Assembly: GCA_046050965.1 (NCBI GenBank)
Contig: JBJOPC010000025.1
Location: forward strand, 1-35,889
From: Verrucomicrobiota bacterium
Lineage (GTDB): Bacteria > Verrucomicrobiota > Verrucomicrobiia > Limisphaerales > JAFMIX01
Length of the DNA: 35,889 nucleotides
Direction: 5' to 3'
Within the stretch, counting starts at the first letter, position 1. Each line of letters starts with the position of its first letter. Shown piece after piece: positions 2,312-35,889 of this stretch. Under the pieces are notes generated by a model. The model saw only the letters and a list, made by a program, of their open reading frames with translations. It did not search any database and was not told the DNA's origin. Both the position numbers and the translations under genes were made by a program.

Positions 2312-4888
2312 ATGAATACCGTTGCCGTCCGATATTTTGCAATGACCACCACCGAAATTCCCTCCCTCCCGCCCGGCGTCAAGCTGACGCGGCTGACCAA
2401 CGGCCTCACCATCATCGTGCGCGAAGATCACAGCGCGCCCGTCGTCAGCGCGCAGGCGTGGTGCGCCACGGGCAGCATTGACGAAGGTAAGTGGCTCGGC
2501 GCAGGTTTGTCGCATGTCTTGGAGCACATGTTGTTCAAAGGCACGAAGACGCGCGGCTCCGGGCGCATTGATCAGGAAGTGCAGGAAGCCGGCGGCTACA
2601 TGAACGCCTACACTTCATTCGACCGCACCGTTTATTACATCAACGTCCCGAACACCGGCGCGCGGGTGGCGATTGATATTCTCGCGGACATCATGCAACA
2701 CGCCGCGCTCCCGCCGGACGAACTCGCCAAGGAACTCGACGTCATCCGCCGCGAGATGGACATGGGGCAGGACGACCCCGGTTCGCGCGCGAGCCGCCGC
2801 CTGTTTGAAGTCGCCTACACGAAAAGTCCGTATCGCTGCACCATCATCGGCTACCTCGACATTTTTAATCAGCTCAAGCCCGCAGACATCCGCGAGTATT
2901 ACGAAGCGCGTTACGCGCCGAACAATATTTTCTTCGTCGTCACCGGCGACGTGAAGGAGGCCGACGTTATCGCGCAGTTGAAAACTGCGTTTGCCGACGC
3001 CAAGGAAAAACCGTTGCCACCCGTCGTGCTGCCGGAAGAACCCAAGCAAGTCGCGCCGCGTGCGGTCATCGAGGAAGCGGCGATTGAACTGGGACATATG
3101 CATTTCAGTTGGCACATCCCCGACGTGCGCCACGCCGACGTGCCGTTGCTCGACGTGCTAGCGGTGTTGCTCGGTAGCGGACGCAGCTCGCGCTTGTTCC
3201 GCGAGGTGCGCGAGAAGCAAGGCGTCGTGCATCATGTGGATGCGTGGACTTACAACCCCGGTCGCCCCGGCGTGTTCGGCATGAGCGCGGTAGTGGACGG
3301 CGAACAATTCTCCGCCGCCCGCGACGCCATGCTCGCGGAAATCGAGCGCATGAAAACCACGTTGGTTTCCGCCGACGAACTCACCAAGGCGATGAAGCAA
3401 TTCATCTCCGGCACGCTTGCGTCGCGCAAGACGATGCAGGGGCAAGCGCAAGACCTCGGCGGCAATTGGCTCGCCGCGAATGACCTCAACTTTTCTGCGC
3501 GCTACCTCGCCGCTGTGCAACGCATCACGTCTGCCGATTTGCAACGCGTCGCTCGCCATTATCTCACGCCGGAAAACCGCACGCTTTACGCGCTCTTGCC
3601 CGAAGGCACGGCGCCCAAGGAAACCACGCACGTCGAAAGCTCTACGGACAACGCCGTGCAGAAATTTACTTTGCCCAACGGTCTGCGTCTGCTCGTGAAG
3701 GAAGACCATCGCCTGCCGTTCGTGGAATTTCGCGCGGTGTTGCGCGGCGGCTTGCTCGCGGAAACAGCGGTGGATAACGGCGTCACCCAACTCATGTCCA
3801 AGATGCTGCTGCAAGGCACGACCACGCGCAGCGCGGAGCAGATTGCCGAAGAGAGCGAGAGCGTGGGCGGCCACCTTGATTCGTTCGGCGGCAACAACAG
3901 CTTTGGCTTGAACGCCGAAGTGATGCGCGAAGATTTTGCGCTCGGCTTGAATCTCGTCGCGGATGTTTTGCTCAACCCAACTTTCCCCGCCGACGCGCTT
4001 GAGCGCGAGCGCGAGATTCAACTTGCCGCCATCAAAGGACGCCGCGACGAATTGTTGCGCCTGTGCGGTCAACTCATGCGTCGCACGTTGTTCGGCGAGC
4101 AAGGTTACGGCCTCGACTCGCTCGGCTCCGAAGCGAGCGTCGACAAACTCTCGACGAGCGACCTAAAAAACTTTCACGCGAAGCTCACCGTGCCGAGCAA
4201 CTGTGTGCTCGCCATCTACGGCGACGTGAAAGCGAGCGAAGTCAAAGCGGCGGTGGAACGCGCGTTTGGGAGATGGGAGATGGGAGATGGGAGATGGTCT
4301 TCCCCCAACTTCCAACTTCCAACTTCCAACTCCCATCTCCCAGCCCGCGTGAGCGAAGTTTGCGACAAGAAACAAGCCGTGCTCGTCGTCGGCTTCACAG
4401 GCACGACCATGTTTGCCGAAGATCGTTACGCGCTGGAGTTGTTGCAGGAAGCGTGCAGTGATTTAGGTTCGCGATTGTTTCTCCGCATCCGCGAGAAACT
4501 CGGCCTCGCCTACTACGTCGGCGCGCAGCAGATGCCCGGCGTGGTTCCCGGCTACTTCGCGTTCTACGCCGGGACGGAGCCGGAGAAAGCGCAACTCGTC
4601 GAAGACGAAATGCTGTCCGAAGCGCGCCAACTCTGCGACGACGGGTTGAGCGACGAAGAATTGAAACGCGCCAAAGCTAAAATCATCGGTCAGAAAAAAA
4701 TTGCGCGCCAAGAACTCGGCGGTCTCGCCATGGCCACCGCGCTCGACGAGCTTTACGGCCTTGGTTATCAACACGCCGCGACCGACGACGCCAAATACGA
4801 AGCCGTCACGCGCGAGCAAGTCCGTGCCGCCGCGCAAAAATACCTGCGCCCCGAAGCCGCCGTCATCGCGTGGGTGCGCCCGACGTGA
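2312..4888 (+). CDS. two-module M16 (pitrilysin/insulinase) family zinc peptidase
   Basis: 858 aa with the HxxEH zinc motif (GLSHVLEHMLFKGT) in the first module and a second, inactive-type M16 module. AAGGAG lies 4 nt upstream of the ATG at 2312; 2342 is an alternative start. Confidence 0.9.
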   Translation: MNTVAVRYFAMTTTEIPSLPPGVKLTRLTNGLTIIVREDHSAPVVSAQAWCATGSIDEGKWLGAGLSHVLEHMLFKGTKTRGSGRIDQEVQEAGGYMNAYTSFDRTVYYINVPNTGARVAIDILADIMQHAALPPDELAKELDVIRREMDMGQDDPGSRASRRLFEVAYTKSPYRCTIIGYLDIFNQLKPADIREYYEARYAPNNIFFVVTGDVKEADVIAQLKTAFADAKEKPLPPVVLPEEPKQVAPRAVIEEAAIELGHMHFSWHIPDVRHADVPLLDVLAVLLGSGRSSRLFREVREKQGVVHHVDAWTYNPGRPGVFGMSAVVDGEQFSAARDAMLAEIERMKTTLVSADELTKAMKQFISGTLASRKTMQGQAQDLGGNWLAANDLNFSARYLAAVQRITSADLQRVARHYLTPENRTLYALLPEGTAPKETTHVESSTDNAVQKFTLPNGLRLLVKEDHRLPFVEFRAVLRGGLLAETAVDNGVTQLMSKMLLQGTTTRSAEQIAEESESVGGHLDSFGGNNSFGLNAEVMREDFALGLNLVADVLLNPTFPADALEREREIQLAAIKGRRDELLRLCGQLMRRTLFGEQGYGLDSLGSEASVDKLSTSDLKNFHAKLTVPSNCVLAIYGDVKASEVKAAVERAFGRWEMGDGRWSSPNFQLPTSNSHLPARVSEVCDKKQAVLVVGFTGTTMFAEDRYALELLQEACSDLGSRLFLRIREKLGLAYYVGAQQMPGVVPGYFAFYAGTEPEKAQLVEDEMLSEARQLCDDGLSDEELKRAKAKIIGQKKIARQELGGLAMATALDELYGLGYQHAATDDAKYEAVTREQVRAAAQKYLRPEAAVIAWVRPT
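4267..4342. repeat. heptamer-built imperfect palindrome inside the M16 peptidase CDS
   Basis: The left arm is (TGGGAGA)x4+TGG at 4267-4297. The loop is TCTTC. The right arm is CCCC(AACTTCC)x3 AACTCCCATCTCCCA at 4303-4342. The outer 12 bp (GGGAGATGGGAG / CTCCCATCTCCC) pair perfectly. It is translated in frame as WEMGDGRWSSPNFQLPTSNSHLP. Confidence 0.85.
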
Positions 4889-4944: not shown

Positions 4945-6366
4945 ATGGCTGTAAAATTCTTCAACTCACTTTCGCGCTCCGTGCAGGAGTTTGCGCCCAT
5001 CCACGGCAACAAGGTCGGAATGTATTGCTGCGGGCCGACGGTCTATGACTTTGCGCACATCGGCAATTGGCGCACGTTTGTCTTCGGCGATCTCGTGCGG
5101 CGTTACTTGGAGTTTCGCGGCTACGCGGTGCAGCACGTCATGAACATCACCGACGTGGAGGACAAAATCATCCGCCGCGTCCGTGAAAATAAAACCACGC
5201 TGCGCGAATTCACCGGCCAATACACCGCCGCGTTCCTCGCCGATCTGCAAGCGCTCGGCTGCCATTTGCCGCACCAGCAACCGCTCGCCACCGATTACAT
5301 CGCCGCGATGATTGAGCTGATCGAGAAACTCATCGCTCGCGGCGTGGCGTATCGTGCGGGCGACGGTTCGGTTTATTTTTCCATCGAGAAATATCGCGGC
5401 TGCGGCTGCCACTACGGCCAGCTCGTGAAACTCAATTTTGAAGAGATGCGCGTGGGCGAACGCGTGAGCAGCGACGAATATGCCAAAGAATCCGTCGCGG
5501 ATTTCGCGCTCTGGAAAGCACGCGTGCTGGACGACGGTGACGTGTTCTGGCCGAGTCCGTGGGGCGAAGGTCGTCCCGGCTGGCACATCGAGTGTTCGGC
5601 GATGAGTTGGAAAATTCTCGGCGGCAGTTTTGATTTGCACCTCGGCGGCGAGGACTTGGCGTTCCCGCATCACGAAGACGAAATCGCGCAGAGCGAAGGC
5701 GCGGGCGTGAACGCGCCCGGCCAGCCGTTCGTGAAATACTGGCTGCACGGCGCGCACTTGCTGGTTGAGGGCAAGAAGATGAGCAAGTCGCTGGGGAATT
5801 ATTTCACGCTGCGTGATTTGGTGGCGAAGGGTTTCACGGGACGCGAGGTGCGGTTTCTTCTGTTGAGCGCGCACTACCGCGAGACGTTTAATTTCACGAT
5901 GGACGGACTTGCGGGCGCGCGCACGGCGTTGGGGCGCATTGACGAATGCGTGGCGAAGTTGCGGGCGTCGGCGAGTCCAAAGTCCGATGTCCAAAGTCCA
6001 AAGTCGGACGACGCGCTCGTCGCGAACATCACTGCCGCGCTCGATGATGATCTGAATATTTCCGGCGCGTGGGCGGTGGTGTTTGACTGGGTGCGCGACA
6101 CGAACAAGCGGCTCGCGGATAATTCCCTCACGCCCACACAAGCGGCAGAAGCACTCTTGGCTTGGGAGCAGGTGAACCTGATTTTCGCTGTCGGAGCCGC
6201 TGCTGCCGCTGAAGCTCCGGCAGAAATCGTGGCGCTCGCCGAAGCGCGCGTGGCCGCCAAGAAAGCCAAGGACTTCAAGCAGGCCGACGCGCTGCGTGAC
6301 GAACTCAAAGCCAAAGGCTGGCTGGTCGAAGACACCGCCAAAGGCCCGAAGCTCAAACGTCTGTAG
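4945..6366 (+). CDS. cysS: cysteine--tRNA ligase
   Basis: 473 aa with CGPTVYDFAHIGN (HIGH-type motif), KMSKS, and the C..C / WHIEC zinc-site context typical of CysRS. Confidence 0.95.
   Translation: MAVKFFNSLSRSVQEFAPIHGNKVGMYCCGPTVYDFAHIGNWRTFVFGDLVRRYLEFRGYAVQHVMNITDVEDKIIRRVRENKTTLREFTGQYTAAFLADLQALGCHLPHQQPLATDYIAAMIELIEKLIARGVAYRAGDGSVYFSIEKYRGCGCHYGQLVKLNFEEMRVGERVSSDEYAKESVADFALWKARVLDDGDVFWPSPWGEGRPGWHIECSAMSWKILGGSFDLHLGGEDLAFPHHEDEIAQSEGAGVNAPGQPFVKYWLHGAHLLVEGKKMSKSLGNYFTLRDLVAKGFTGREVRFLLLSAHYRETFNFTMDGLAGARTALGRIDECVAKLRASASPKSDVQSPKSDDALVANITAALDDDLNISGAWAVVFDWVRDTNKRLADNSLTPTQAAEALLAWEQVNLIFAVGAAAAAEAPAEIVALAEARVAAKKAKDFKQADALRDELKAKGWLVEDTAKGPKLKRL
5975..6009. repeat. 5 x 7-nt tandem tract inside cysS
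   Basis: The tract is GTCCAAA GTCCGAT GTCCAAA GTCCAAA GTCGGAC, translated as SPKSDVQSPKSD. Confidence 0.8.
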
Positions 6367-6410
6367 GGTGTTTCTAAAAGGTCGGCGCGGCTTTTAACAT
6401 TTGAGCCATT

Positions 6411-6565
6411 CTCCCTCACCCCGGCCCTCTCCCGCTGGGAGAGGGAGAAACGTGCGCCGCGGCTTGGCAAAATGAGTGTGGTCAACGGCTCGGAAGATTT
6501 TCGCAGAACCGAACGAGAACCAAGGCGGTTCCCTCTCCCAGCGGGAGAGGGTTAGGGTGAGGGAG
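6411..6565. repeat. inverted pair of 35-nt REP-like units downstream of cysS
   Basis: Unit 1 (6411-6445) is CTCCCTCACCCCGGCCCTCTCCCGCTGGGAGAGGG. Unit 2 (6531-6565) is its reverse complement at 32/35 positions. Each unit holds its own 9-bp hairpin, CCCTCTCCC-NNN-GGGAGAGGG. The units are 85 nt apart. Confidence 0.85.
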
Positions 6566-6696
6566 GACGGGCTGTTATTTTCATCACGGTTATAATTTAA
6601 AAAACCACCCTCGCCAATTTTTTTACACACCGCGCACCATCCCGATTTTTGATTGCGACTTGAAACTTCCACCTCGTCTCTGGAAACTCCGCCCGC

Positions 6697-9573: not shown

Positions 9574-10209
9574 TCACACCACGGACGCGCGCGCTTTCGG
9601 AAATTTGCCGAGATGAAAAATCAGGAAGCCGTGCAGGAATTGCCGCACGGCCACGGCTTGCGCGGCGGTGGCGCGCAGCGCGGCGAGTTCGGCGAACGGC
9701 GCTTCGGTGAGCGCGGTGAGGAGTTGTTGCGTAGCGGGCGGCAACTGCGTTTCGCTCGCGTCGGGTTCAAGGCCGAGTTCGCGCAGCAGTTTTAATTCAA
9801 ACGCAAAAATGCAGCGCGGCTTGGGCAGTTGCGCGGGAACATGCGCGAGAAATTCGGCGAACAGCGCGTAAATTTCCGGCAGCGGCGTGCCGGTTTCGGT
9901 CGTCTGTTCGATGAGCGCGCTGGCGTAGGCGACTTGTTGCAGCCAGCCGAGTTCGCGCCGCAGTGCCGGGTGCGTGTCGCGCAAACCGACTTCGCGCAAC
10001 GTGTGCAGATCGGAGCGGCGGCTGGGCTGGAATTGGAAATCGGCGGCGTAAAATAAATCCAGCTTGCCCGCGAACGCGGACTTAGGACGGCGCGCGCCTT
10101 TTGCCACCGTGGCGATGCGTCCATGCGCCGCCGTGAGCCAATGCACGATTAGGCTCGTCTCCGTGAGCGCGCGGGTGCGGAGGATGATGCCGGTGGCGGA
10201 TTCGGTCAT
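9574..10209 (-). CDS. recO: DNA repair protein RecO
   Basis: The 211 aa from the ATG at 10207..10209 read MTESATGIILRTRALTETSLIVHWLTAAHGRIATVAKGARRPKS..., a typical RecO OB-fold N-terminus. The longer track ORF (to 10500) runs through intergenic repeats. Confidence 0.88.
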   Translation of the reverse strand: MTESATGIILRTRALTETSLIVHWLTAAHGRIATVAKGARRPKSAFAGKLDLFYAADFQFQPSRRSDLHTLREVGLRDTHPALRRELGWLQQVAYASALIEQTTETGTPLPEIYALFAEFLAHVPAQLPKPRCIFAFELKLLRELGLEPDASETQLPPATQQLLTALTEAPFAELAALRATAAQAVAVRQFLHGFLIFHLGKFPKARASVV

Positions 10210-10218
10210 GCGAGGGCA

Positions 10219-10249
10219 GGAGTTGGAAGTTGGAAGCTGGGAGTTGGGG
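10219..10249. repeat. single-arm copy of the TGGGAGT/TGGAAGT heptamer element
   Basis: GGAGTTGGAAGTTGGAAGCTGGGAGTTGGGG lies immediately upstream of the recO start. I found no inverted partner nearby. Confidence 0.75.
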
Positions 10250-10263
10250 TAGGGCTTCCTAAA

Positions 10264-10326
10264 CTTAATCCTACTCGTAATCCTAATCCGCAAAACCGGC
10301 TGATTACGATTACGAGTAAGATTACG
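10264..10326. repeat. hexamer-built hairpin between the DUF502 gene and recO
   Basis: The left arm CTTAATCCTACTCGTAATCCTAATC (10264-10288) pairs with the right arm GATTACGATTACGAGTAAGATTACG (10302-10326) with about 3 mismatches. The loop is 13 nt. The arms are built from TAATCC/GATTAC-type 6-mers. Confidence 0.8.
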
Positions 10327-10346
10327 TTTATGAACATAGTCGGCGG

Positions 10347-15154: not shown

Positions 15155-18100
15155 TCATTTGGCTTTCAAAATTCGGAACGGTTGCGTCCAGGCGTCGAAG
15201 CGACAGACGCTGGCGTAGTCGCAGAAATCGCAGGCGGTCTCGCTGCCTTTGCGGAAGGGCGTGACGGAAATTTTTCCGGCAAAAATTTCCGTGCCGAACT
15301 GTTTCAAGTTGGCGACAGCGTCGTCGAGCAGCGCGCGGAATTCGGGCGCGGGCAAGCGGTCGTGGCTGGTTTTGCCGGTCTTGAATTGTTCCTTGGTTTC
15401 GGCGGGGTCGAGTTTGGCGAGTTGTGCTTCGTCGTAGCGACCGACGTGCTGAAAACTTTCGCGGACGGTAGTCGCGGCGTGAGTGGCGTCGGTGTCGCGG
15501 GTTTTGCTGGTGGAAAATTCGCCGCGTAAGTTGACGTAGAAAACGCCGGCGGCGGAAATTTTTTCCACGCCGAGCGTGGCGCAGGATTCGGGAATGTTTT
15601 CGAGTGCAGCAAGGTAAGCGGGGAGTTGCAACTGCACTCCGTGAGCGAGCTTGAGTTGGTCAGGTTTGCGCGCGCTAGATTTGTAGTCCACGACGACAGC
15701 GAGCGCGGCACCGGTGGTGGGATCGCGCCATAAATCCACGCGGTCAATGCGTCCGCGCAGCGAAAGTTGGTGCGTGGCGTCGAGCGGAATTGTCCAAGCG
15801 GGCCAAGGAGAATCTTCGGGCAGACCGAAGCCGACTTCGACGAGCGCGGGGTCGAATTGATAGTCGCGCGCCCAGCCGATGAGGACGCCGAGGAGCGTTT
15901 CGAGCGCGGCGAGGAGTGTCTCACCAGCGAAGCGGCTGGCGGCGTCGCGCGTGAATAGGCCGCGCTCGTAGGCGGGCAGGAGTTCGTGGCCGAGGCGACG
16001 CACGCGGGCGCGCGCGGTGTCGGGCGTGAGGTCGCGCCACTTCAAATTTTCGGTGAGCAGTTCGTTGTGGAAAATTTTCAGAAGCTCGTGTTGGAACGAA
16101 CCGCGTTGGCGGGCGTCGAGTTCAAATTCTTTACGCTCTTGCGCGCGGAGGCCGCGACCGACGAAGAACTTAAACGGACACGCGCCGAAATCTTCGAGCG
16201 CGCTGACGGAAGTTTTGAACTCACTGCCGTAGAGCGCGTCGGCGTGGGCGGGCGTGATTAACTGGGGCGCGTGGGCGGCGGCGATTTGCTGCGCGTGAGC
16301 CAGCACGTCGGTGAGTTGGGGCAGTGCGAGCAGTGGAGTTTGCACGCCGCGCGACTGGAGTTGGAGGGCGGCGGGAATGATTTCGTGCGGGTGAACGAGC
16401 GCGTCGAACGGCGCGGGCGCGGGCGCGTCGGTGAGTTTTATTTCAGGGAAAATTTTTTCGAGTTGATCGAAAAAGGGCGAGCGGTTCAGCGCTTTGCCCC
16501 GCGCGTCAGTCTGGGCGCAGGTGAGCACGAGGCGTTCGCTGGCGCGCGTGACGGCGACGTAGCCGAAATATCTTTCGTGACCGAGGCGACGGCGCAAATC
16601 AGGGCTGGGCGCGGCGTGGTGCAAGGAGAGTTCGTCGCGTTCGAGTTCGTTGAGGAGTGAGTTTTCGCGGGGTGGCGCGGGGAAAATGCCTTCGTTCAAG
16701 CCGAGCACGACGGCGAGTTTCAGTTCGGGTGTGCGCGAACGGTCGAGCGCGCCGATGACGACTTGATCCAGCGCGGGTGGGATGACGCCGACGGTCAGCG
16801 TGGCGAGGCCGGACTCAACGATGGGCAGCCAGTCGCGGACGGTGAGTGTGGTGTCGGGGAACGCGCGGGCGAGATTGCCGAGCCATTTTTGGAGCTGTTC
16901 CCAGACGGTGGCGTGGATTGGCGATTGGCAATTGGCAATTGAGGACTGGGGAAATTCTTGTGCGCTCCACGTCTCAAAAGTTTTTTGCACGTCGAGTTCG
17001 TGCCAGAGATTTTGCAGGGCGGTGGCGAGTTGTTCGCCGGTGGCGGCGGTGGCGAGCGTGGTCGAAAAAGTTTTGAACGGCGGAACGATTTGTTGGCGCA
17101 AGTTTTCGGCGGTTGCGGAATCGGCGATGGGGTTCAACCAGAATTTTCCATCCCAGCCGAATTGTAGCGCGGCGTTTTCGAGGGAATCAATTTCCGTTTC
17201 CGCGACGGGGACGAGGCCGGTTTTGAGCGCGCCGAACCAGTCGTCGTGCCGCCAGCCGTAGGCGGCGAGGCGCAGGGCGTAACGCGTGAGTTCGGCGAGC
17301 GGATGGTGGGCGACGGGTTCGCGGCGGTCGAGGTAGCAGGGGATTTCGTAGCGCGCGAACACGCGGCGAAGCGTGTCGGCGTAACCATCGAGCGAGCGGA
17401 CGAGCACGGCAGTTTCGCGGAAACGTCCGCCGCGCTGAACGTGTGCGAGGATTTCGCGCGCGGCGTGGACGGCTTCGGCATCGGGCGTCGAAAGCCGGAA
17501 AAGTTGAAGCGCAGAAGGCGTAGGGCGTGGGGCGTGGGGCGCGGGCTGGCCGCTTGCCCAGCTTTTTTCTAGGTGCGCGAGTGTGGGATTTCTGGCGAAC
17601 CGGGTTGACGGCGCGGTGTTGGACAGAACTTCCGTGATGAGTTGCACGGTGGAAATTTTTTCCAAGCGTTCGCGACAACGGAGAAAAGTCTGGCCGACAA
17701 TCGCCCACGGCGAGAGCCAGCCGGGGTCGGTTTTAATTTCGGCGTCGAGGCAGAACGCGAGCGTTGCGCGCTGGCATTGGGGGACGAGCGCGGCGAGCAG
17801 GTCGAGTTCCTGCGCGGTCATTTCGGCGAAGCCATCGAGCCATAGTTGCGCGAGCGGCATCGTCCACGCGCCGGATTTCAACTGCTCGGCGGCGAGGGTG
17901 ATGAGCGTGGAGGCGTCGTGCAGCGCGTAGTCGGCGAGCCACGTTTGGTAGGCGCGCAGGAGCAGGGCGAAGTCGTGGAGTTTGTCGCGGAGCTGCGACG
18001 GGAGAGTTTTTTTCCCGGCGAGGTCGAAAAGTTTTTGCGGCGAGATTTGCTGGCGTTGAAATTCCTGGAGCAGCGCGCTCAAGCGTTTGGCGAAACCGGG

Positions 18101-18448
18101 CAGGCGCGCGGTGGCGTGGAAGAGACGGAGTTCGCCGCGATGCCGCGCGAGCAGGGCGCGGAGAATCATCACGCGGCCTTCGTCAGCGAGCCAGCCGGGC
18201 AGGGCGGGGGAAAATTCGGCGACGATGAATTCCGCGAGGCGCTCGAAGGAAACAATCTGGAGGCGCGTGTAACCGGCGAGCGAACCGTCGGCGAGGAGGT
18301 CGCGCTCGATTTGAAACGTGGCTTGCTTGGGCGCGAGGAGAATCAGCGGCGGGCCGTTGGGCGCGCGGAGGAGTTCGGCGCGAATCTCGGCGAGGCAGCG
18401 GAATGTTTTGCCGCTGCCAGCGGGGCCGAGGAGGAAGCGCGTTTGCAC
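15155..18448 (-). CDS. addB: AddB-type helicase-nuclease subunit (PD-(D/E)XK nuclease with Fe-S cysteines)
   Basis: 1097 aa from a GTG start. It has an N-terminal P-loop (LLGPAGSGKT), the nuclease motif VVVDYKSS, and the C-terminal cysteine cluster CDFCDYASVCRF typical of AddB. Confidence 0.85.
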   Translation of the reverse strand: MQTRFLLGPAGSGKTFRCLAEIRAELLRAPNGPPLILLAPKQATFQIERDLLADGSLAGYTRLQIVSFERLAEFIVAEFSPALPGWLADEGRVMILRALLARHRGELRLFHATARLPGFAKRLSALLQEFQRQQISPQKLFDLAGKKTLPSQLRDKLHDFALLLRAYQTWLADYALHDASTLITLAAEQLKSGAWTMPLAQLWLDGFAEMTAQELDLLAALVPQCQRATLAFCLDAEIKTDPGWLSPWAIVGQTFLRCRERLEKISTVQLITEVLSNTAPSTRFARNPTLAHLEKSWASGQPAPHAPRPTPSALQLFRLSTPDAEAVHAAREILAHVQRGGRFRETAVLVRSLDGYADTLRRVFARYEIPCYLDRREPVAHHPLAELTRYALRLAAYGWRHDDWFGALKTGLVPVAETEIDSLENAALQFGWDGKFWLNPIADSATAENLRQQIVPPFKTFSTTLATAATGEQLATALQNLWHELDVQKTFETWSAQEFPQSSIANCQSPIHATVWEQLQKWLGNLARAFPDTTLTVRDWLPIVESGLATLTVGVIPPALDQVVIGALDRSRTPELKLAVVLGLNEGIFPAPPRENSLLNELERDELSLHHAAPSPDLRRRLGHERYFGYVAVTRASERLVLTCAQTDARGKALNRSPFFDQLEKIFPEIKLTDAPAPAPFDALVHPHEIIPAALQLQSRGVQTPLLALPQLTDVLAHAQQIAAAHAPQLITPAHADALYGSEFKTSVSALEDFGACPFKFFVGRGLRAQERKEFELDARQRGSFQHELLKIFHNELLTENLKWRDLTPDTARARVRRLGHELLPAYERGLFTRDAASRFAGETLLAALETLLGVLIGWARDYQFDPALVEVGFGLPEDSPWPAWTIPLDATHQLSLRGRIDRVDLWRDPTTGAALAVVVDYKSSARKPDQLKLAHGVQLQLPAYLAALENIPESCATLGVEKISAAGVFYVNLRGEFSTSKTRDTDATHAATTVRESFQHVGRYDEAQLAKLDPAETKEQFKTGKTSHDRLPAPEFRALLDDAVANLKQFGTEIFAGKISVTPFRKGSETACDFCDYASVCRFDAWTQPFRILKAK
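16916..16951. repeat. 7-nt tandem tract inside addB
   Basis: GATTGGC GATTGGC AATTGGC AATTGAG GACTGGG is translated on the minus strand as ...PQSSIANCQSPIH... Confidence 0.75.
17518..17545. repeat. 7-nt tandem tract inside addB
   Basis: GCGTAGG GCGTGGG GCGTGGG GCGCGGG is translated on the minus strand as ...PHAPRPTPS... Confidence 0.7.
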
Positions 18449-26929: not shown

Positions 26930-28642
26930 CTACTTCAACAACGCTTCGGCGTGTTTGCGCGCGGCGTCACTTTGGCCGCCGAGCATTCGCGTGAGTTCGG
27001 CGACGCGAGACTTTTTATCGAGCAAGGTGATTTCCGAAGTCGTCCGTCCGTCGCGCACTTGCTTGGTCACGACGTAGTGCGCGTCGGCGGGCGCGGCGAC
27101 TTGCGGCAGGTGCGTGATGCAAATGACCTGACGTTTCGTCGCAAGCTGCTGCATCTTTTCGCCGACGGCATTGGCGGTTTCGCCGCCGACGTTCGCGTCC
27201 ACCTCATCAAAAACCAGCACGGGAATTTCGTCCTCTGCCGCGAGCACGGTTTTCAACGCCAACATCACGCGCGCCATCTCGCCGCTCGACGCAATCGCGC
27301 GCAGCGGCTTCAACGGCTCGCCGATGTTCGGGGAGAACTGGAATTCAACGGTGTCGAATCCAGAGTTGGAGGCGGAGGAGATGGGAGTTGGAAGTTGGGA
27401 GTTAGGGCTGTTGCTCCCCAACTTCCAACTCCCATCTCCTATCTCCTGTTTGATTTCAAAATGGCTTTGCTTGAAACCCAAATCCGCGAGTTGCAGCGCG
27501 GCGGCTTGGGCGAGTTTGGGAATGACCTTGGCGCGGGCGGCGGAAAGTTTCTTGCCCGCGCTCAACAGTTCGGCGTCGAGTTTTTTTAATGCGAGGTTGA
27601 GGCGCGCGAGTTCGGCGTCGCGGGATTCGAGCGCGCGGAGTTTTTCCTTGGCGTCGTCGCCGAACGCGGTGACTTCGGCTAGCGTCGCGCCGTATTTGCG
27701 CTTGAGTGTGTGGAGCAGATTCAGCCGCTCCTCCAACTCCGCGAGGCGCGCGGGATCCACGTCCACCTTGTCGGCGTAGCGGGAAATTTCCGTCTGCAAC
27801 TCGCGCAAAATTTCCGTGGCCTGCGCGTGCAGTTCGCCCAGCGGCGCCGCGCCCGCGTCCACGCGCTGCAACTCGTGCAAGGTGCGTCCGACCGCGCCGG
27901 CCTGCGTGAGCAACGAGGCGTCGGACTCGCTCAACACGTCGAGCGCGGCTTGGCTCAACTGGAGCAGCTTGGCGGCGTTGCTGGCGCGGCGAAATTCTTG
28001 TTCCACGATTTCGTCCTCGCCGGGTTGCAGGCGCGCGGTGGAAATTTCCTGCACTTGGAAACGCAGCAGATCGAGTTGTTGCGCGTAAGTTTTTTCGTCC
28101 ACGACGAGCGCGGACTTTTCGTTTTCCAACGCAGCGCGGCGGCGGACAAGTTCGCCGAATTCTTCGCGGGCTTTTTCCAACCCGCCGAACTTATCTAAAA
28201 TCAAAAGTTGTTTCGCCGGATGCAGCAGCGACTGATGGTCGTGCGGGCCGTGCATATCCACGAGCGATTCGCCGAGGCTGGCGAGGACGGCGAGCGTGGT
28301 GGCGGAGCCGTTGACGAACTGGCGATTCGTGCCGGCGGCGGTGAAGGTGCGTTTGAGCACCAGTTGATTTTCCTCGCACGGTTCGAGGCCGTTCTCGTCG
28401 AGAAAACTTTTCAACGGCGCGCGCAGTTTCGCCACCTCGAACACCGCCTCGACGCTGCAACTGTCCGCGCCGCTGCGGATAAGGGTGCGGTCGGCGCGTT
28501 GGCCGAGCACGAGGTTGAGCGCGCCGATGATGATGGATTTGCCCGCGCCGGTTTCGCCGGTGATGACGTTGCCGCCGGGCTGGAGTTCCAGCGTGAGGTC
28601 GGCCACGAGGGCGAGGTTTTTGATGCGAAGCGTCGTGAGCAT
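26930..28642 (-). CDS. recN: DNA repair protein RecN
   Basis: The ATG at 28640..28642 gives MLTTLRIKNLALVADL...ITGETGAGKSIIIGAL (Walker A). A long coiled coil follows, then the C-terminal signature ASSGEMARVMLAL and Walker B (VLVFDEVD). Confidence 0.92.
   Translation of the reverse strand: MLTTLRIKNLALVADLTLELQPGGNVITGETGAGKSIIIGALNLVLGQRADRTLIRSGADSCSVEAVFEVAKLRAPLKSFLDENGLEPCEENQLVLKRTFTAAGTNRQFVNGSATTLAVLASLGESLVDMHGPHDHQSLLHPAKQLLILDKFGGLEKAREEFGELVRRRAALENEKSALVVDEKTYAQQLDLLRFQVQEISTARLQPGEDEIVEQEFRRASNAAKLLQLSQAALDVLSESDASLLTQAGAVGRTLHELQRVDAGAAPLGELHAQATEILRELQTEISRYADKVDVDPARLAELEERLNLLHTLKRKYGATLAEVTAFGDDAKEKLRALESRDAELARLNLALKKLDAELLSAGKKLSAARAKVIPKLAQAAALQLADLGFKQSHFEIKQEIGDGSWKLGSNSPNSQLPTPISSASNSGFDTVEFQFSPNIGEPLKPLRAIASSGEMARVMLALKTVLAAEDEIPVLVFDEVDANVGGETANAVGEKMQQLATKRQVICITHLPQVAAPADAHYVVTKQVRDGRTTSEITLLDKKSRVAELTRMLGGQSDAARKHAEALLK
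27377..27446. repeat. strong hairpin element (heptamer family) inside the recN CDS
   Basis: The left arm GGAGATGGGAGTTGGAAGTTGGGAG (27377-27401) pairs with the right arm CTCCCCAACTTCCAACTCCCATCTCC (27414-27439), giving 25 bp with one bulged base. The loop is TTAGGGCTGTTG, and a trailing extra unit TATCTCC follows. It is translated in frame as GDGSWKLGSNSPNSQLPTPISS. Confidence 0.9.
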
Positions 28643-28726
28643 GAAAATGTCTGCGCGCAATCTGGCGACGCCACGCGACTTCGGCAAAAAGAAAATGCCG
28701 AGACCTATCTGATAACCGAACGGAAA

Positions 28727-35021: not shown

Positions 35022-35263
35022 AAATCCGTCTCTTCATCAAACCTACCTGTGGCTGGTGTCGGCTCGCGACGGACTGGCTGAACGCGCGCGGCATCCAGTA
35101 TGAATTGATTGACGTGTTCGCCCAGCGCGGCGCGTTGCAGGAGATGGTGAATCTCTCCGGCCAGCAAAAGTCGCCGGTCATCGAAGTGGATGGAAAAGTT
35201 TTGGCGGATTTTGGCCCGGAAGAACTTGAGGCTTTTTGGGAAACGAATTTCAACCACAGATAA
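35018..35263 (+). CDS. glutaredoxin-like small redox protein (CGWC), tandem paralog
   Basis: The ATG at 35018 overlaps the upstream TGA (ATGA). Its 81 aa are about 55-60% identical to the preceding protein. Its last three codons and TAA stop lie inside the downstream repeat's left arm. Confidence 0.75.
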   Translation: MKIRLFIKPTCGWCRLATDWLNARGIQYELIDVFAQRGALQEMVNLSGQQKSPVIEVDGKVLADFGPEELEAFWETNFNHR

Positions 35264-35328
35264 ACACAGATGCACACAGATTCTGAAACCAAATTGGCTT
35301 ATCTGTGTTTATCTGTGTCCATCTGTGG
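35254..35328. repeat. 10-nt-period inverted repeat between the grx-like gene and lipA
   Basis: The left arm is CCACAGATAA ACACAGATGC ACACAGAT (35254-35281) and the loop is 19 nt. The right arm is ATCTGTGTTT ATCTGTGTCC ATCTGTGG (35301-35328). The ATCTGTG/CACAGAT cores pair, while the 3-nt linkers are variable. Confidence 0.85.
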
Positions 35329-35339
35329 TTAATAAAATT

Positions 35340-35889
35340 GTGACGACGACAGAACTTAAACCTCGCCCGCGCTTGCCCGACTGGCTGCGCTTGCCATTGC
35401 CTACCGCGAACACCTTCGCGCGCACACGTTCGCTGCTCGACGAGTTGAAACTGCACACCGTCTGCGAGAGTGCCAAGTGCCCGAACCACTGGGAATGTTG
35501 GAGCAAAGGCACGGCGACCTTCATGATCGCGGGCGACCACTGCACGCGCGCCTGCGGTTTCTGCGCCGTCAGCACCGCCAAGCCGCTCGCGCTCGAATCC
35601 GACGAACCTGCGCGCGTCGCCGAAGCCACACGCCGCATGAAACTCAAGCACGTCGTCATCACCGCCGTGGCGCGTGACGATTTAGCCGACGGTGGCGCGG
35701 AACATTTTCGCCGCACGATTGAAAAAGTCCGTGAGCTGAATCCGGGAATTGTCATCGAAGTGCTCGTGCCGGATTTCAACGAGCGCGATGACGCCATCGA
35801 AATGGTCTTGCAGGCGCACCCGCACATCTTCAACCACAACCTCGAAACCGTCCGCCGCCTCACGCCGAGCGTGCGTCACCGCGCAACCT
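35340..35889 (+). CDS. lipA: lipoyl synthase, N-terminal part (runs off window)
   Basis: This frame is absent from the ORF track because no stop falls in the window. The GTG at 35340 gives VTTTELKPRPRLPDWLRLPLP...CESAKCPNHWECW...TFMIAGDHCTRACGFCAV, which contains both LipA cysteine clusters. Confidence 0.9.
   Translation, partial: MTTTELKPRPRLPDWLRLPLPTANTFARTRSLLDELKLHTVCESAKCPNHWECWSKGTATFMIAGDHCTRACGFCAVSTAKPLALESDEPARVAEATRRMKLKHVVITAVARDDLADGGAEHFRRTIEKVRELNPGIVIEVLVPDFNERDDAIEMVLQAHPHIFNHNLETVRRLTPSVRHRAT

Follow-up and report, generated by a model that had tools for sequence, protein, structure and literature searches.

A translated heptamer-armed palindromic repeat in a RecN surface loop that is a hot spot for hairpin-forming repeats in Verrucomicrobia subdivision 3

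The stretch of DNA analysed here (the window; 35,889 nt) carries recN on its minus strand at 26930..28642, with a likely start, MLTTLRIKN at 28642, chosen from the consensus start and invariant columns; the mechanical open reading frame (26930..28687, minus strand) reaches further, to a TTG at 28687. The gene was identified by its PF02463/PF13476 domains and by 94% identity to a protein named RecN by NCBI, and the host is verrucomicrobial, judged by the names of the RecN relatives. The Walker A motif (GETGAGKS), an SGGE-like signature motif and Walker B (VLVFDEVD) are all intact. A preliminary description of this DNA had claimed a palindromic element within the recN reading frame, and both the frame and the accompanying translation (...EIGDGSWKLGSNSPNSQLPTPISSASNSGFDTVEFQF) were reproduced. 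The whole heptamer-armed element spans 72 nt (27376..27447, minus strand) and is read in frame as approximately Q399–S423 of RecN, QEIGDGSWKLGSNSPNSQLPTPISS; a predicted peptide spanning the insert is, for example, LGSNSPNSQLPTPISSASNSGFDTVEFQFSPNIGEPLK.

The palindrome consists of two 24-nt arms with 100% complementarity, separated by a central loop, AGTTAGGGCTGTTGCTC (27400..27416). On the plus strand, arm 1 (27376..27399) is G-rich, AGGAGAT GGGAGTT GGAAGTT GGG, and becomes the 3′ C-rich arm of the recN mRNA. Arm 2 (27417..27440) is C-rich on the same strand, CCC AACTTCC AACTCCC ATCTCCT, and one extra imperfect unit (ATCTCCT) carries it on to 27447; an inverted-repeat search accordingly delimits the imperfect arm extension as 27376-27407 / 27416-27447. 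The arm units are tandem heptamers of the form GGNAGWT, or the complement AWCTNCC, and Tandem Repeats Finder reports a period of 7 in both arms (3.9 copies at 27377-27403 and 3.3 copies at 27417-27439). Folded in the mRNA sense with RNAfold, the element forms a 25-bp stem with a 15-nt loop at –52.8 kcal/mol (z = –6.7), a value that 0 of 200 shuffles equals, and as DNA its two strands fold at –31 and –32 kcal/mol (z –7.5 and –8.4). The near-perfect stem of ~25 bp, its heptameric units and the stability anticipated when a fold calculation was proposed as a check all held in this analysis, albeit with a loop somewhat longer than the 12 nt first given: the perfect arms lie 17 nt apart, and the fold adds one more base pair to leave 15 nt. 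The arms are devoid of stop codons in all six frames, such that any copy with a frame-keeping length would be translatable; across the entire element, three of the six frames are open, including the one used by recN. A terminator and promoter scan found the recN hairpin not to be terminator-like and to have no terminator-like tail, and an Rfam scan of the whole window matched no family. Readings as a CRISPR, tRNA or riboswitch were rejected, as none suits a translated 72-nt palindrome.

The translated palindrome occupies the loop directly before the C-terminal ATPase lobe of RecN, as first described. The alignment to D. radiodurans RecN (4AD8) spans this site, with the gap falling exactly at the element, and 16 of 197 RecN relatives have a short loop of 12-14 residues there. 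On the evidence of these ortholog alignments, the element is extra sequence, as had been claimed, and specifically an insertion relative to the ancestral short loop. The insert comprises ~20 hydrophilic residues in a permissive surface loop, between two β-strands that open the C-terminal head lobe. Placement rests on the 4AD8 alignment, because the head of an AlphaFold2 model of RecN (45-sequence alignment; mean pLDDT 56.6, head domain <50) was too poor to position the insert.

Searches of the window with the 25-mer at up to 3 mismatches gave six matches, compared to 0.00 expected from shuffles, located at 4269-4340, 10219-10243 and 27377-27439. Recurrence of the unit family at 4267 and 10219 had been noted previously; the former proved to be a second complete hairpin of the same heptamer family (4267..4342, plus strand), and the latter a single arm only (10219..10247, plus strand; GGAGTT GGAAGTT GGAAGCT GGGAGTT GG). 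The complete copy is translated in frame as GRWEMGDGRWSSPNFQLPTSNSHLP within an M16 peptidase gene (2312-4888) and has the layout (GGGAGAT)x4 GG-tctt-CCCCC (AACTTCC)x3 AACTCCC ATCTCCC. Its DNA folds at –28.9 kcal/mol (z –5.7), and Tandem Repeats Finder reports period 7 at 4267-4297 (4.4 copies, 100% matches). The single-arm array lies 9 nt upstream of the recO ATG (10209), its G-rich strand being antisense to recO, and is the exception to translation among the three copies in 35.9 kb. Arrays of other heptamer units occur inside CysRS and AddB in the window. No transposase or RAYT was found among the 20 window ORFs scanned with Pfam.

The architecture of the M16 copy recurs, likewise in frame, in RecG, a UvrD-like helicase and a GT2 glycosyltransferase of other genomes, such that the proposed membership in a repeat family is borne out both within and beyond the window. 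In this plan, three to four heptamers per arm flank a GGGG–short loop–CCCC centre, giving copies of 62-86 nt; arms and centre are the only features common to the copies, the loop sequences being unrelated. A GTAG or CGTC tag is present at neither end of 27363-27450, direct repeats of the kind expected from target-site duplication flank neither complete copy (recN, M16), and, the palindrome aside, these copies lack terminal inverted repeats. Around the RecN loop lies a short direct repeat, TTYGAC; short-loop alleles carry it too, so that it belongs to the gene. A contig search with (GGRAGWT)3 returned at least 120 loci across many phyla, with strict same-family hairpins rare among the matches listed (3 in about 150 arrays). 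A search of protein representatives with the 32-residue insert peptide of M16 gave 17 matches, mostly long repeat proteins or short ORFs, from which no list of host proteins was obtainable. Across 885 kb of these genomes, Tandem Repeats Finder detected 53 arrays of period 7, compared to 3-15 for periods 5, 6, 8 and 9.

We compared 197 RecN relatives from Verrucomicrobia subdivision 3; being the best matches to the window's protein, they do not form an unbiased sample. At least three extra residues follow residue 400 in 181 of these relatives, and this sequence can be sorted into ten or more unrelated families of repeats, most of which form hairpins. Several of the families other than the window's resemble REP dimers, one of which begins GTAGGAGACGAGGTGAC, and every insert family at the site also has copies elsewhere on the contigs examined. 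Fold z-scores below –2 were obtained for 41 of 60 distinct long loops, compared to 2 of 16 short loops. About a third of the long loops are decayed stems (z > –2), with several of heptamer type among them, and some are single-armed. The heptamer family of the window occupies the same site in relatives of 80-94% identity, and relatives also carry, at both the RecN and the M16 site, single-arm arrays made of different heptamers. Elsewhere in RecN a single further indel site was found, after residues 70-74, where the inserts also resemble translated palindromic repeats. The reading frame is kept in every allele among about 200 relatives. In Verrucomicrobia subdivision 3, the RecN loop is a hot spot for hairpin-forming repeats.

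A neighbour-joining tree of the 197 RecN backbones was star-like, and loop types were therefore not mapped onto it; pairwise backbone identity was instead compared with loop similarity. The identities of two backbone segments correlate at r = 0.70, which indicates that the RecN backbone phylogeny is coherent. Loop type is common to 50% of pairs at 93-96% backbone identity, and to 18% at 90-93%. Identity within loop types is only 0.003-0.024 higher than identity between them, the excess being greatest adjoining the site. Loop type is nearly uncoupled from the backbone. Recombination is demonstrated in one pair of alleles, the sole pair above 93% DNA identity with differing loop types: L017, which has a short loop, and L001, which has a REP-like loop, are 98-100% identical across recN except for a tract of ~600 bp round the loop, where identity falls to 67-95%. 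The alignment of this pair demonstrates one loop swap within a ~600-bp recombination tract. No tracts are visible in the other pairs with different loops (L082/L027, L206/L207 and L208/L209), because their backgrounds are only 88-91% identical.

Relative to L081, which is 91% identical overall, one arm of the window's element is identical, and six differences in the other make the window's stem perfect; the rewritten side is arm 2 (27417..27440), the 5′ G-rich arm in the mRNA sense. That one arm is unchanged while the other has been rewritten to match it points to slippage or template switching, and we infer one or the other as the mechanism of rewriting. Template switching has been discussed as a keeper of coding palindromes (PMC6649704). 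At the M16 peptidase copy, (GGGAGAT)4 in the window corresponds to (GGAAGAT)5 in a 92%-identical relative.

The explanation that we favour, and consider probable, is that the recN element is a dispersed, translatable palindromic repeat residing in a permissive RecN loop, where it is remodelled by slippage and template switching, shuffled by recombination, and tolerated as selfish DNA. New loop alleles would be seeded rarely, through insertion or nested insertion of dispersed repeats; heptamer arms would then be reshaped by 7-nt slippage, with complementarity regained via intrastrand template switching (quasipalindrome correction). Such correction would account for a perfect stem in the window alongside decayed stems in relatives. 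Homologous recombination through the conserved flanks would move loop alleles between lineages, and the RecN loop would serve as a parking bay for hairpin-forming repeats in Verrucomicrobia subdivision 3. The variety of hairpin repeats that this one loop accommodates in relatives argues for tolerated selfish DNA more than for a one-off invasion. For RecN, the insert most probably represents selfish DNA, neutral or slightly deleterious, and not an adaptation, although the occupancy of the loop in 181 of 197 relatives could alternatively mean that the presence of some hairpin is advantageous at this position.

Among published repeats, the nearest counterparts are REPs lying within repair genes (PMC3733652) and simple-sequence repeats with a heptanucleotide unit (PMC4692102). 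REPs are defined as imperfect palindromes of 20-40 nt with a GTAG or CGTC tetranucleotide at one end, and Di Nocera et al. (2013, PMC3733652) described intragenic GTAG/CGTC REPs in replication and repair genes, including uvrA and ligase of Opitutus terrae and recB of Xanthomonas. The same study reports the highest GTAG REP count in a verrucomicrobium, many REPs in DNA repair genes, and different REPs at about the same recB site in two Xanthomonas species, and its authors argue for placement of intragenic REPs in flexible loops. In-frame REPs in repair genes of Verrucomicrobia are thus already published. As with REPs, the window family comprises short dispersed palindromes that are read in frame, add 20-30 residues and occur in repair genes. 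The element in the window differs from REPs in having no GTAG/CGTC tag and in its arms, which are built of tandem heptamers and measure 24-32 nt, compared to usual REP stems of 6-9 bp. The main text of PMC3733652 contains no occurrence of recN among REP-bearing genes, and its relevant passages make no mention of near-saturation of one loop by at least ten families or of shuffling by recombination.

Heptanucleotide repeats are represented by the cyanobacterial STRR and the G-rich GGGNATC repeats of Xanthomonas and Nostoc (Rehm et al. 2015, PMC4692102), and by TAACTGA repeats (PMC4679880). The window family resembles them in its tandem, G-rich and dispersed 7-nt units, with about four units preferred (PMC4692102), and head-to-tail 7-nt units in at least three copies, as in STRR, were found by Tandem Repeats Finder in both recN arms and at 4267-4297. 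In addition, the recO-upstream copy, <50 bp upstream of an ORF and on the antisense strand, matches the published positional bias (PMC4692102), and the (GGGAGAT)4 of the M16 copy fits the canonical G-quadruplex motif (G3N4); the recN arm has only two GGG runs. The published repeats are described as single direct arrays under-represented in coding sequence (PMC4692102), whereas here two inverted arrays form a hairpin and are translated. The mainly intergenic location of such repeats is seen here in the recO-upstream copy only, two of the three window copies being translated. Perfect inverted repeats that are dynamically gained and lost have also been described in protein-coding genes of an animal organelle, with repeat conversion or template switching, and not function, suggested for their upkeep (2019, PMC6649704); in that case both arms encode conserved protein regions, whereas here the palindrome is extra loop sequence and many copies are decaying.

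The analogy to Rickettsia palindromic elements (RPEs) drawn in the preliminary description stands in part. RPEs are ~100-150 bp long, have family consensus sequences and a conserved encoded peptide, and reside in Rickettsia hosts (Ogata et al. 2000, 2002, summarised in PMC10969869). Both kinds of element are palindromic repeats in frame in unrelated housekeeping genes, tolerated at the protein surface, with arm identity that fades with time (PMC10969869). However, the window family (62-86 nt; 72 nt in recN) is built of simple heptamer units, with no family consensus or conserved peptide, no common core other than the arms and the GGGG–loop–CCCC centre, no terminal tags or target-site duplication, and arm composition that varies between 91%-identical genomes. 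The missing duplication at the window's complete copies also sets them apart from MITEs.

Beyond the favoured explanation, a more active process is conceivable, though doubtful. Specifically, hairpin-directed copy-and-replace might overwrite one hairpin repeat with another at a given site, either through ectopic template switches among dispersed hairpins when forks stall or through an unrecognised HUH/RAYT-like enzyme. Heptamer-armed palindromes would then constitute a previously undescribed REP-like class of mobile DNA, persisting preferentially in surface loops of repair and replication proteins (RecN, RecG, UvrD, AddB) and making hypervariable cassettes. A purely local origin is unlikely; here, a heptanucleotide microsatellite in the loop would have grown by polymerase slippage and acquired its inverted copy by fold-back or template switching, with no transfer between loci. 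No other tandem-repeat period approaches the heptamer in frequency, either in these genomes or among bacteria at large (Mrazek 2007, cited in PMC4679880 and PMC4692102), single-arm arrays of other heptamer units lie at the same RecN and M16 sites in relatives, and 7-nt indels can relate the window to L081. Nevertheless, GGRAGWT arrays are spread over many phyla, and the same unit family, in the same layout of 3-4 + 3-4 units about a GGGG–loop–CCCC centre, occupies five unrelated genes in several genomes, which would be unexpected had the copies arisen independently.

Quite unlikely, too, is a recent lineage-specific invasion, in which a transposase would have cut and pasted a discrete MITE- or RPE-like element into an empty recN site. 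Such an event would account for the extra sequence relative to short-loop relatives, for several copies with a recognisable common architecture, and for in-frame copies in several unrelated genes. However, the site is not the otherwise empty one that had been supposed: it holds the same family in relatives of 80-94% identity and at least ten other families in others, with loop type nearly independent of the backbone. The absence of target-site duplications, of terminal inverted repeats other than the palindrome and of any common core beyond the arms and centre likewise counts against invasion, as do the unit numbers and sequences that differ between 91-92%-identical genomes and the lack of a transposase in the 20 window ORFs scanned.

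We consider it very unlikely that the recN hairpin is a selected structure, useful in mRNA or single-stranded DNA whatever its sequence, for example by making ribosomes pause ahead of the C-terminal head lobe, by admitting RNase III and so limiting RecN levels, or as a DNA structure. The frequency of inserts among relatives, the significant folding of 41 of 60 distinct long loops, the window's perfect stem of >20 bp, and the published enrichment of intragenic REPs in replication and repair genes (PMC3733652) would all be consistent with selection. Yet a short loop suffices in sixteen relatives and in D. radiodurans, about a third of long loops have decayed (heptamer-type loops included) and some are one-armed, the same elements occur in unrelated proteins and between genes, and the hairpin has neither a terminator-like tail nor an Rfam family. 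Finally, a contingency locus, in which recN would be frameshifted off and on as single 7-nt units are gained or lost (phase variation), is scarcely credible, despite a unit length that is not a multiple of three, phase variation mediated by heptamer repeats in Haemophilus, and heptamer arrays in other repair genes of the window (AddB, recO leader), given that only 3-4 non-identical units per arm make a poor slippage substrate and that all alleles in about 200 relatives are in frame.

With the insert regarded as tolerated selfish DNA in a permissive loop, the locus offers a natural experiment in which selfish hairpin DNA and 7-nt microsatellites remodel essential proteins. Annotation and alignment call for caution, since stretches of 20-30 residues in the "proteins" of these genomes can be no more than translated repeats. 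The RecN loop is an insertion-tolerant site useful for protein tagging and engineering, and its fast evolution and shuffling by recombination make it usable for strain typing and for detecting recombination in uncultured Verrucomicrobia. Why inserts recur in genes for repair and replication, as observed for REPs in 2013, can now be tested at the RecN site, where one loop of an SMC-like repair ATPase took at least ten unrelated repeat families with its reading frame kept.

The palindrome at 27376-27447 is read in frame within recN (ORF 26930..28687, minus strand; SMC_N and AAA_23 domains), whose product is 94% identical to a protein named RecN by NCBI and matches D. radiodurans RecN (structure 4AD8) at E = 2e-66; translation likely starts at MLTTLRIKN (28642). 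A repeat search of the window located perfect arms at 27376-27399 and 27417-27440 (24 nt each, 100% complementary, 17 nt apart), with an imperfect extension to 27376-27407 and 27416-27447, and Tandem Repeats Finder assigned a period of 7 to both arms, which are built from GGAGAT, GGGAGTT and GGAAGTT units and their complements. The mRNA-sense strand is predicted to form a stem of 25 bp capped by a 15-nt loop (-52.8 kcal/mol, z = -6.7), a fold matched by 0 of 200 dinucleotide-preserving shuffles, while as single-stranded DNA the two strands give -31 and -32 kcal/mol (z -7.5 and -8.4). Arms, fold and periodicity together bear out the in-frame palindrome of the preliminary description, although its 12-nt loop is in fact 15-17 nt. 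The site has no terminator-like character in a terminator scan, and the hairpin matched no Rfam family. In the protein, the element corresponds to roughly residues Q399-S423, part of ...KQEIGDGSWKLGSNSPNSQLPTPISSASNSGFDTVEFQF.

Alignment with 4AD8 leaves the D. radiodurans chain (MEFALSALAEPAAYGLSDVLLRFSAN) gapped precisely across the element, and a short loop likewise occurs in 16 of 197 close relatives (e.g. FDVAISAAEMSSSGLDAIEFQF; 550-aa forms such as database protein P0021, and metagenome loci such as L030), confirming that the element is extra sequence relative to both. The loop anchors lie 48 residues apart in the window's RecN versus 28-29 in short-loop forms. The ATPase motifs are all invariant in the RecN alignment; the head domain of the AlphaFold RecN model was too poor to inform on the insert. 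In a comparison of 120 database relatives sharing 79-100% identity, plus 80 loci from metagenomes, the segment flanked by GFKQSKFD and G[FL]DxxEFQF is filled by a wide variety of unrelated sequences: the heptamer type seen in the window (MADGRWQMGNGSPNSQLPTPNS and its variants), VGDEVTSLKSK..QSLLTSAPT, VAADVSRL..QSRLTSAAT, GWGERPREP..APARGDARPT, RWGETPSSP..GSTESRPT, GSSRCDDRTAQRAVP, SAFRRP..PPEGGTPN, PLTRPAATLSPPxGERDGARG, RSCDA..RASQLR, FQISNFKPQI and single heptamer arrays. About 70 loops are of heptamer type, 44 and 15 fall in two REP-like types, further types number 14, 8, 6, 4, 4 and 3, and 13 others and the 16 short loops complete the set. Every insert family has more copies elsewhere on the fetched contigs, and these are therefore dispersed repeats. 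Fold z lies below -2 in 41 of 60 distinct long loops versus 2 of 16 short ones, the window's stem (z = -10.6 in this comparison) being among the most perfect. RecN length varies at two places only, with at least three extra residues after residue 400 in 181 of 197 sequences, so that the private, lineage-specific invasion first proposed gives way to a loop filled by many unrelated repeat families. The rarer site, after residues 70-74, carries inserts with the look of translated palindromes in about 14-17 sequences. This second site is in the N-terminal head lobe, with inserts of 5-48 residues (SERRAPSRP...GAPS and QSAQTSPVESQRGLTSAAT, for example) at loci including L038, L047, L058, L060, L068 and L075; the window's RecN has none there.

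On these sequence comparisons, loop type depends very little on the RecN backbone. Backbone history is itself coherent, because the identities of two separate RecN segments correlate (r = 0.70). Pairs whose loops are alike nevertheless become much scarcer as backbone identity falls, from 95% of pairs at 99-100% to 72-74% at 96-99%, 50% at 93-96%, 18% at 90-93% and 13% at 85-90%, and mean backbone identity within types exceeds that between types by just 0.003-0.024, most beside the loop site. Locus L017 (short loop) and locus L001 (REP-like loop) are 98-100% identical in recN outside a loop-centred tract of ~600 bp, where identity falls to 67-95%; this is the mark of a loop allele imported by homologous recombination, which explains how loop type can uncouple from backbone. 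As the sole pair with >93% DNA identity and differing loop types, it makes the generality of this route a matter of extrapolation. Nested loops, with an extra repeat within another hairpin's loop (L038; L015 versus L042), show that new insertions also occur.

Complete copies of the heptamer-hairpin family span 62-86 nt and share one layout: 3-4 NGNAGWT units, GGGG, a loop of 4-29 nt, CCCC and 3-5 AWCTNCC units. They are read in frame in RecN of several lineages, a RecG helicase (L188; GDGRWEMADGKRSPTPISHLPT), a UvrD-like helicase (L074), a GT2 glycosyltransferase (L197) and an M16 peptidase in the window (GRWEMGDGRWSSPNFQLPTSNSHLP). The last, at 4267-4342, is the window's second complete heptamer hairpin; of the two recurrences noted in the preliminary description, at 4267 and 10219, both contain related units, but the latter is a single arm only. 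An arm 25-mer occurs six times in the window at up to three mismatches, versus 0 expected. The L188 record is titled 'uncultured Bifidobacteriaceae', and its RecG carries a verrucomicrobial-type heptamer hairpin; the bin label may be wrong, because the contig resembles verrucomicrobial loci in sequence style. Heptamer arms are stop-free in all six frames, and the M16 and recN copies are open in six and three of six, respectively. A scan for (GGRAGWT)3 with one genome per species returned at least 120 loci, mostly single arrays among the matches listed, which were spread over Cyanobacteria, Bacteroidota, Acidobacteriota, Gemmatimonadota, Verrucomicrobiota, Planctomycetota and Chloroflexota. Contigs surrounding the recN relatives, 885 kb in all, contained 53 arrays of period 7 versus 3, 5, 15 and 4 for periods 5, 6, 8 and 9, and 17 of the 53 were in hairpin configuration.

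Known repeat classes accommodate the element only in part. The MITE class does not fit, as no target-site duplication was found at heptamer-hairpin copies; neither do their loops have any sequence in common, and the 20 window ORFs scanned include no transposase. The analogy with RPEs drawn at the outset does not hold for size or consensus, these classic in-frame palindromes being described as ~150 bp long with family consensus sequences (PMC10969869). REPs come closer. The GTAG/CGTC REPs of Di Nocera et al. 2013 (PMC3733652), whose main text does not mention recN, are reported inside genes, many for replication and repair (uvrA, recBCD, dnaE2, ligase), where they encode 20-30 residues, frequently as dimers; recB of two Xanthomonas species has different REPs at roughly one site, and the top GTAG count belongs to the verrucomicrobium Opitutus terrae. 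The heptamer hairpin, however, lacks a GTAG or CGTC tag. An unexplained excess of heptanucleotide repeats is known in bacteria, with G-rich GGGNATC arrays favouring four units, the antisense strand and positions ≤50 bp upstream of ORFs (PMC4692102). The single G-rich arm upstream of recO (10219-10247, antisense, 9 nt from the ATG) fits this positional preference exactly. The element combines a REP-like coding palindrome with heptamer-microsatellite arms.

Comparison of close relatives indicates how the arms change. Between the window and locus L081, recN is 91% identical and one arm is unchanged; the second has six differences that complete the window's perfect stem, L081 having GGGAGAT / AGGAGAT repeats, or alternatively one 7-nt loss and one 7-nt gain. 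The window's M16 gene carries (GGGAGAT)4, and that of a 92%-identical relative (GGAAGAT)5 facing an arm that has diverged; at the same linker, other relatives carry (CAACATC)5 or (GAATTCA)4, read as QHPTSNIQHPTSN or NSEFRIQNSE. The M16 linker, of ~20-25 residues, turns over like the RecN loop, and the left arm of its window copy fits the canonical G-quadruplex motif. The recN and M16 differences point to slippage that would homogenise the arms as tandem arrays, with occasional re-matching of the arms to each other, probably through intrastrand template switching (quasipalindrome correction), which has been discussed as a mechanism for coding palindromes (PMC6649704). Several heptamer-type RecN loops have a decayed stem or a lost arm (L004, L014, L020, L071, P0030), which makes it unlikely that the stem is under strong selection. 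On balance, and with moderate confidence, the recN hairpin is most likely repeat DNA, selfish or neutral, that is tolerated because it sits in a permissive loop of RecN.

Other repeats occur along the window. The cysteinyl-tRNA synthetase ORF (4945-6366) reads through an (AGTCCAA)x4.6 array at 5974-6005, between the catalytic and DALR domains, and downstream lies an intergenic 41-nt inverted pair (6406-6446 / 6530-6570; 88% complementary; core CCCTCTCCCGCTGGGAGAGGG) of a family translated inside the RecN loop of L064. AddB helicase-nuclease (15155-18448, minus strand) is another repair gene with translated 7-nt repeats (ATTGGCA x3.6, 16917-16941; GGCGTGG x4.1, 17517-17545). Directly after the recO-upstream arm comes a distinct hairpin with hexamer-repeat arms (10256-10334; TCCTAA / GATTAC), the 141 nt at 10205-10345 folding as DNA at -27.8 kcal/mol (z -6.5). 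An intergenic hairpin at 35252-35330, immediately upstream of the lipoyl synthase gene, has decamer-repeat arms (CACAGATAAA / TTATCTGTGT; 35240-35340, 101 nt, DNA fold -24.7 kcal/mol, z -7.0). This hairpin and the window's other repeats suggest a general tendency of the genome to carry hairpins whose arms are tandem repeats. More interesting than the recN hairpin itself is a result from outside the coordinates first described: throughout a whole verrucomicrobial group, the RecN loop is almost fully occupied by hairpin repeats that turn over fast, and similar turnover affects other proteins, some of them repair proteins.
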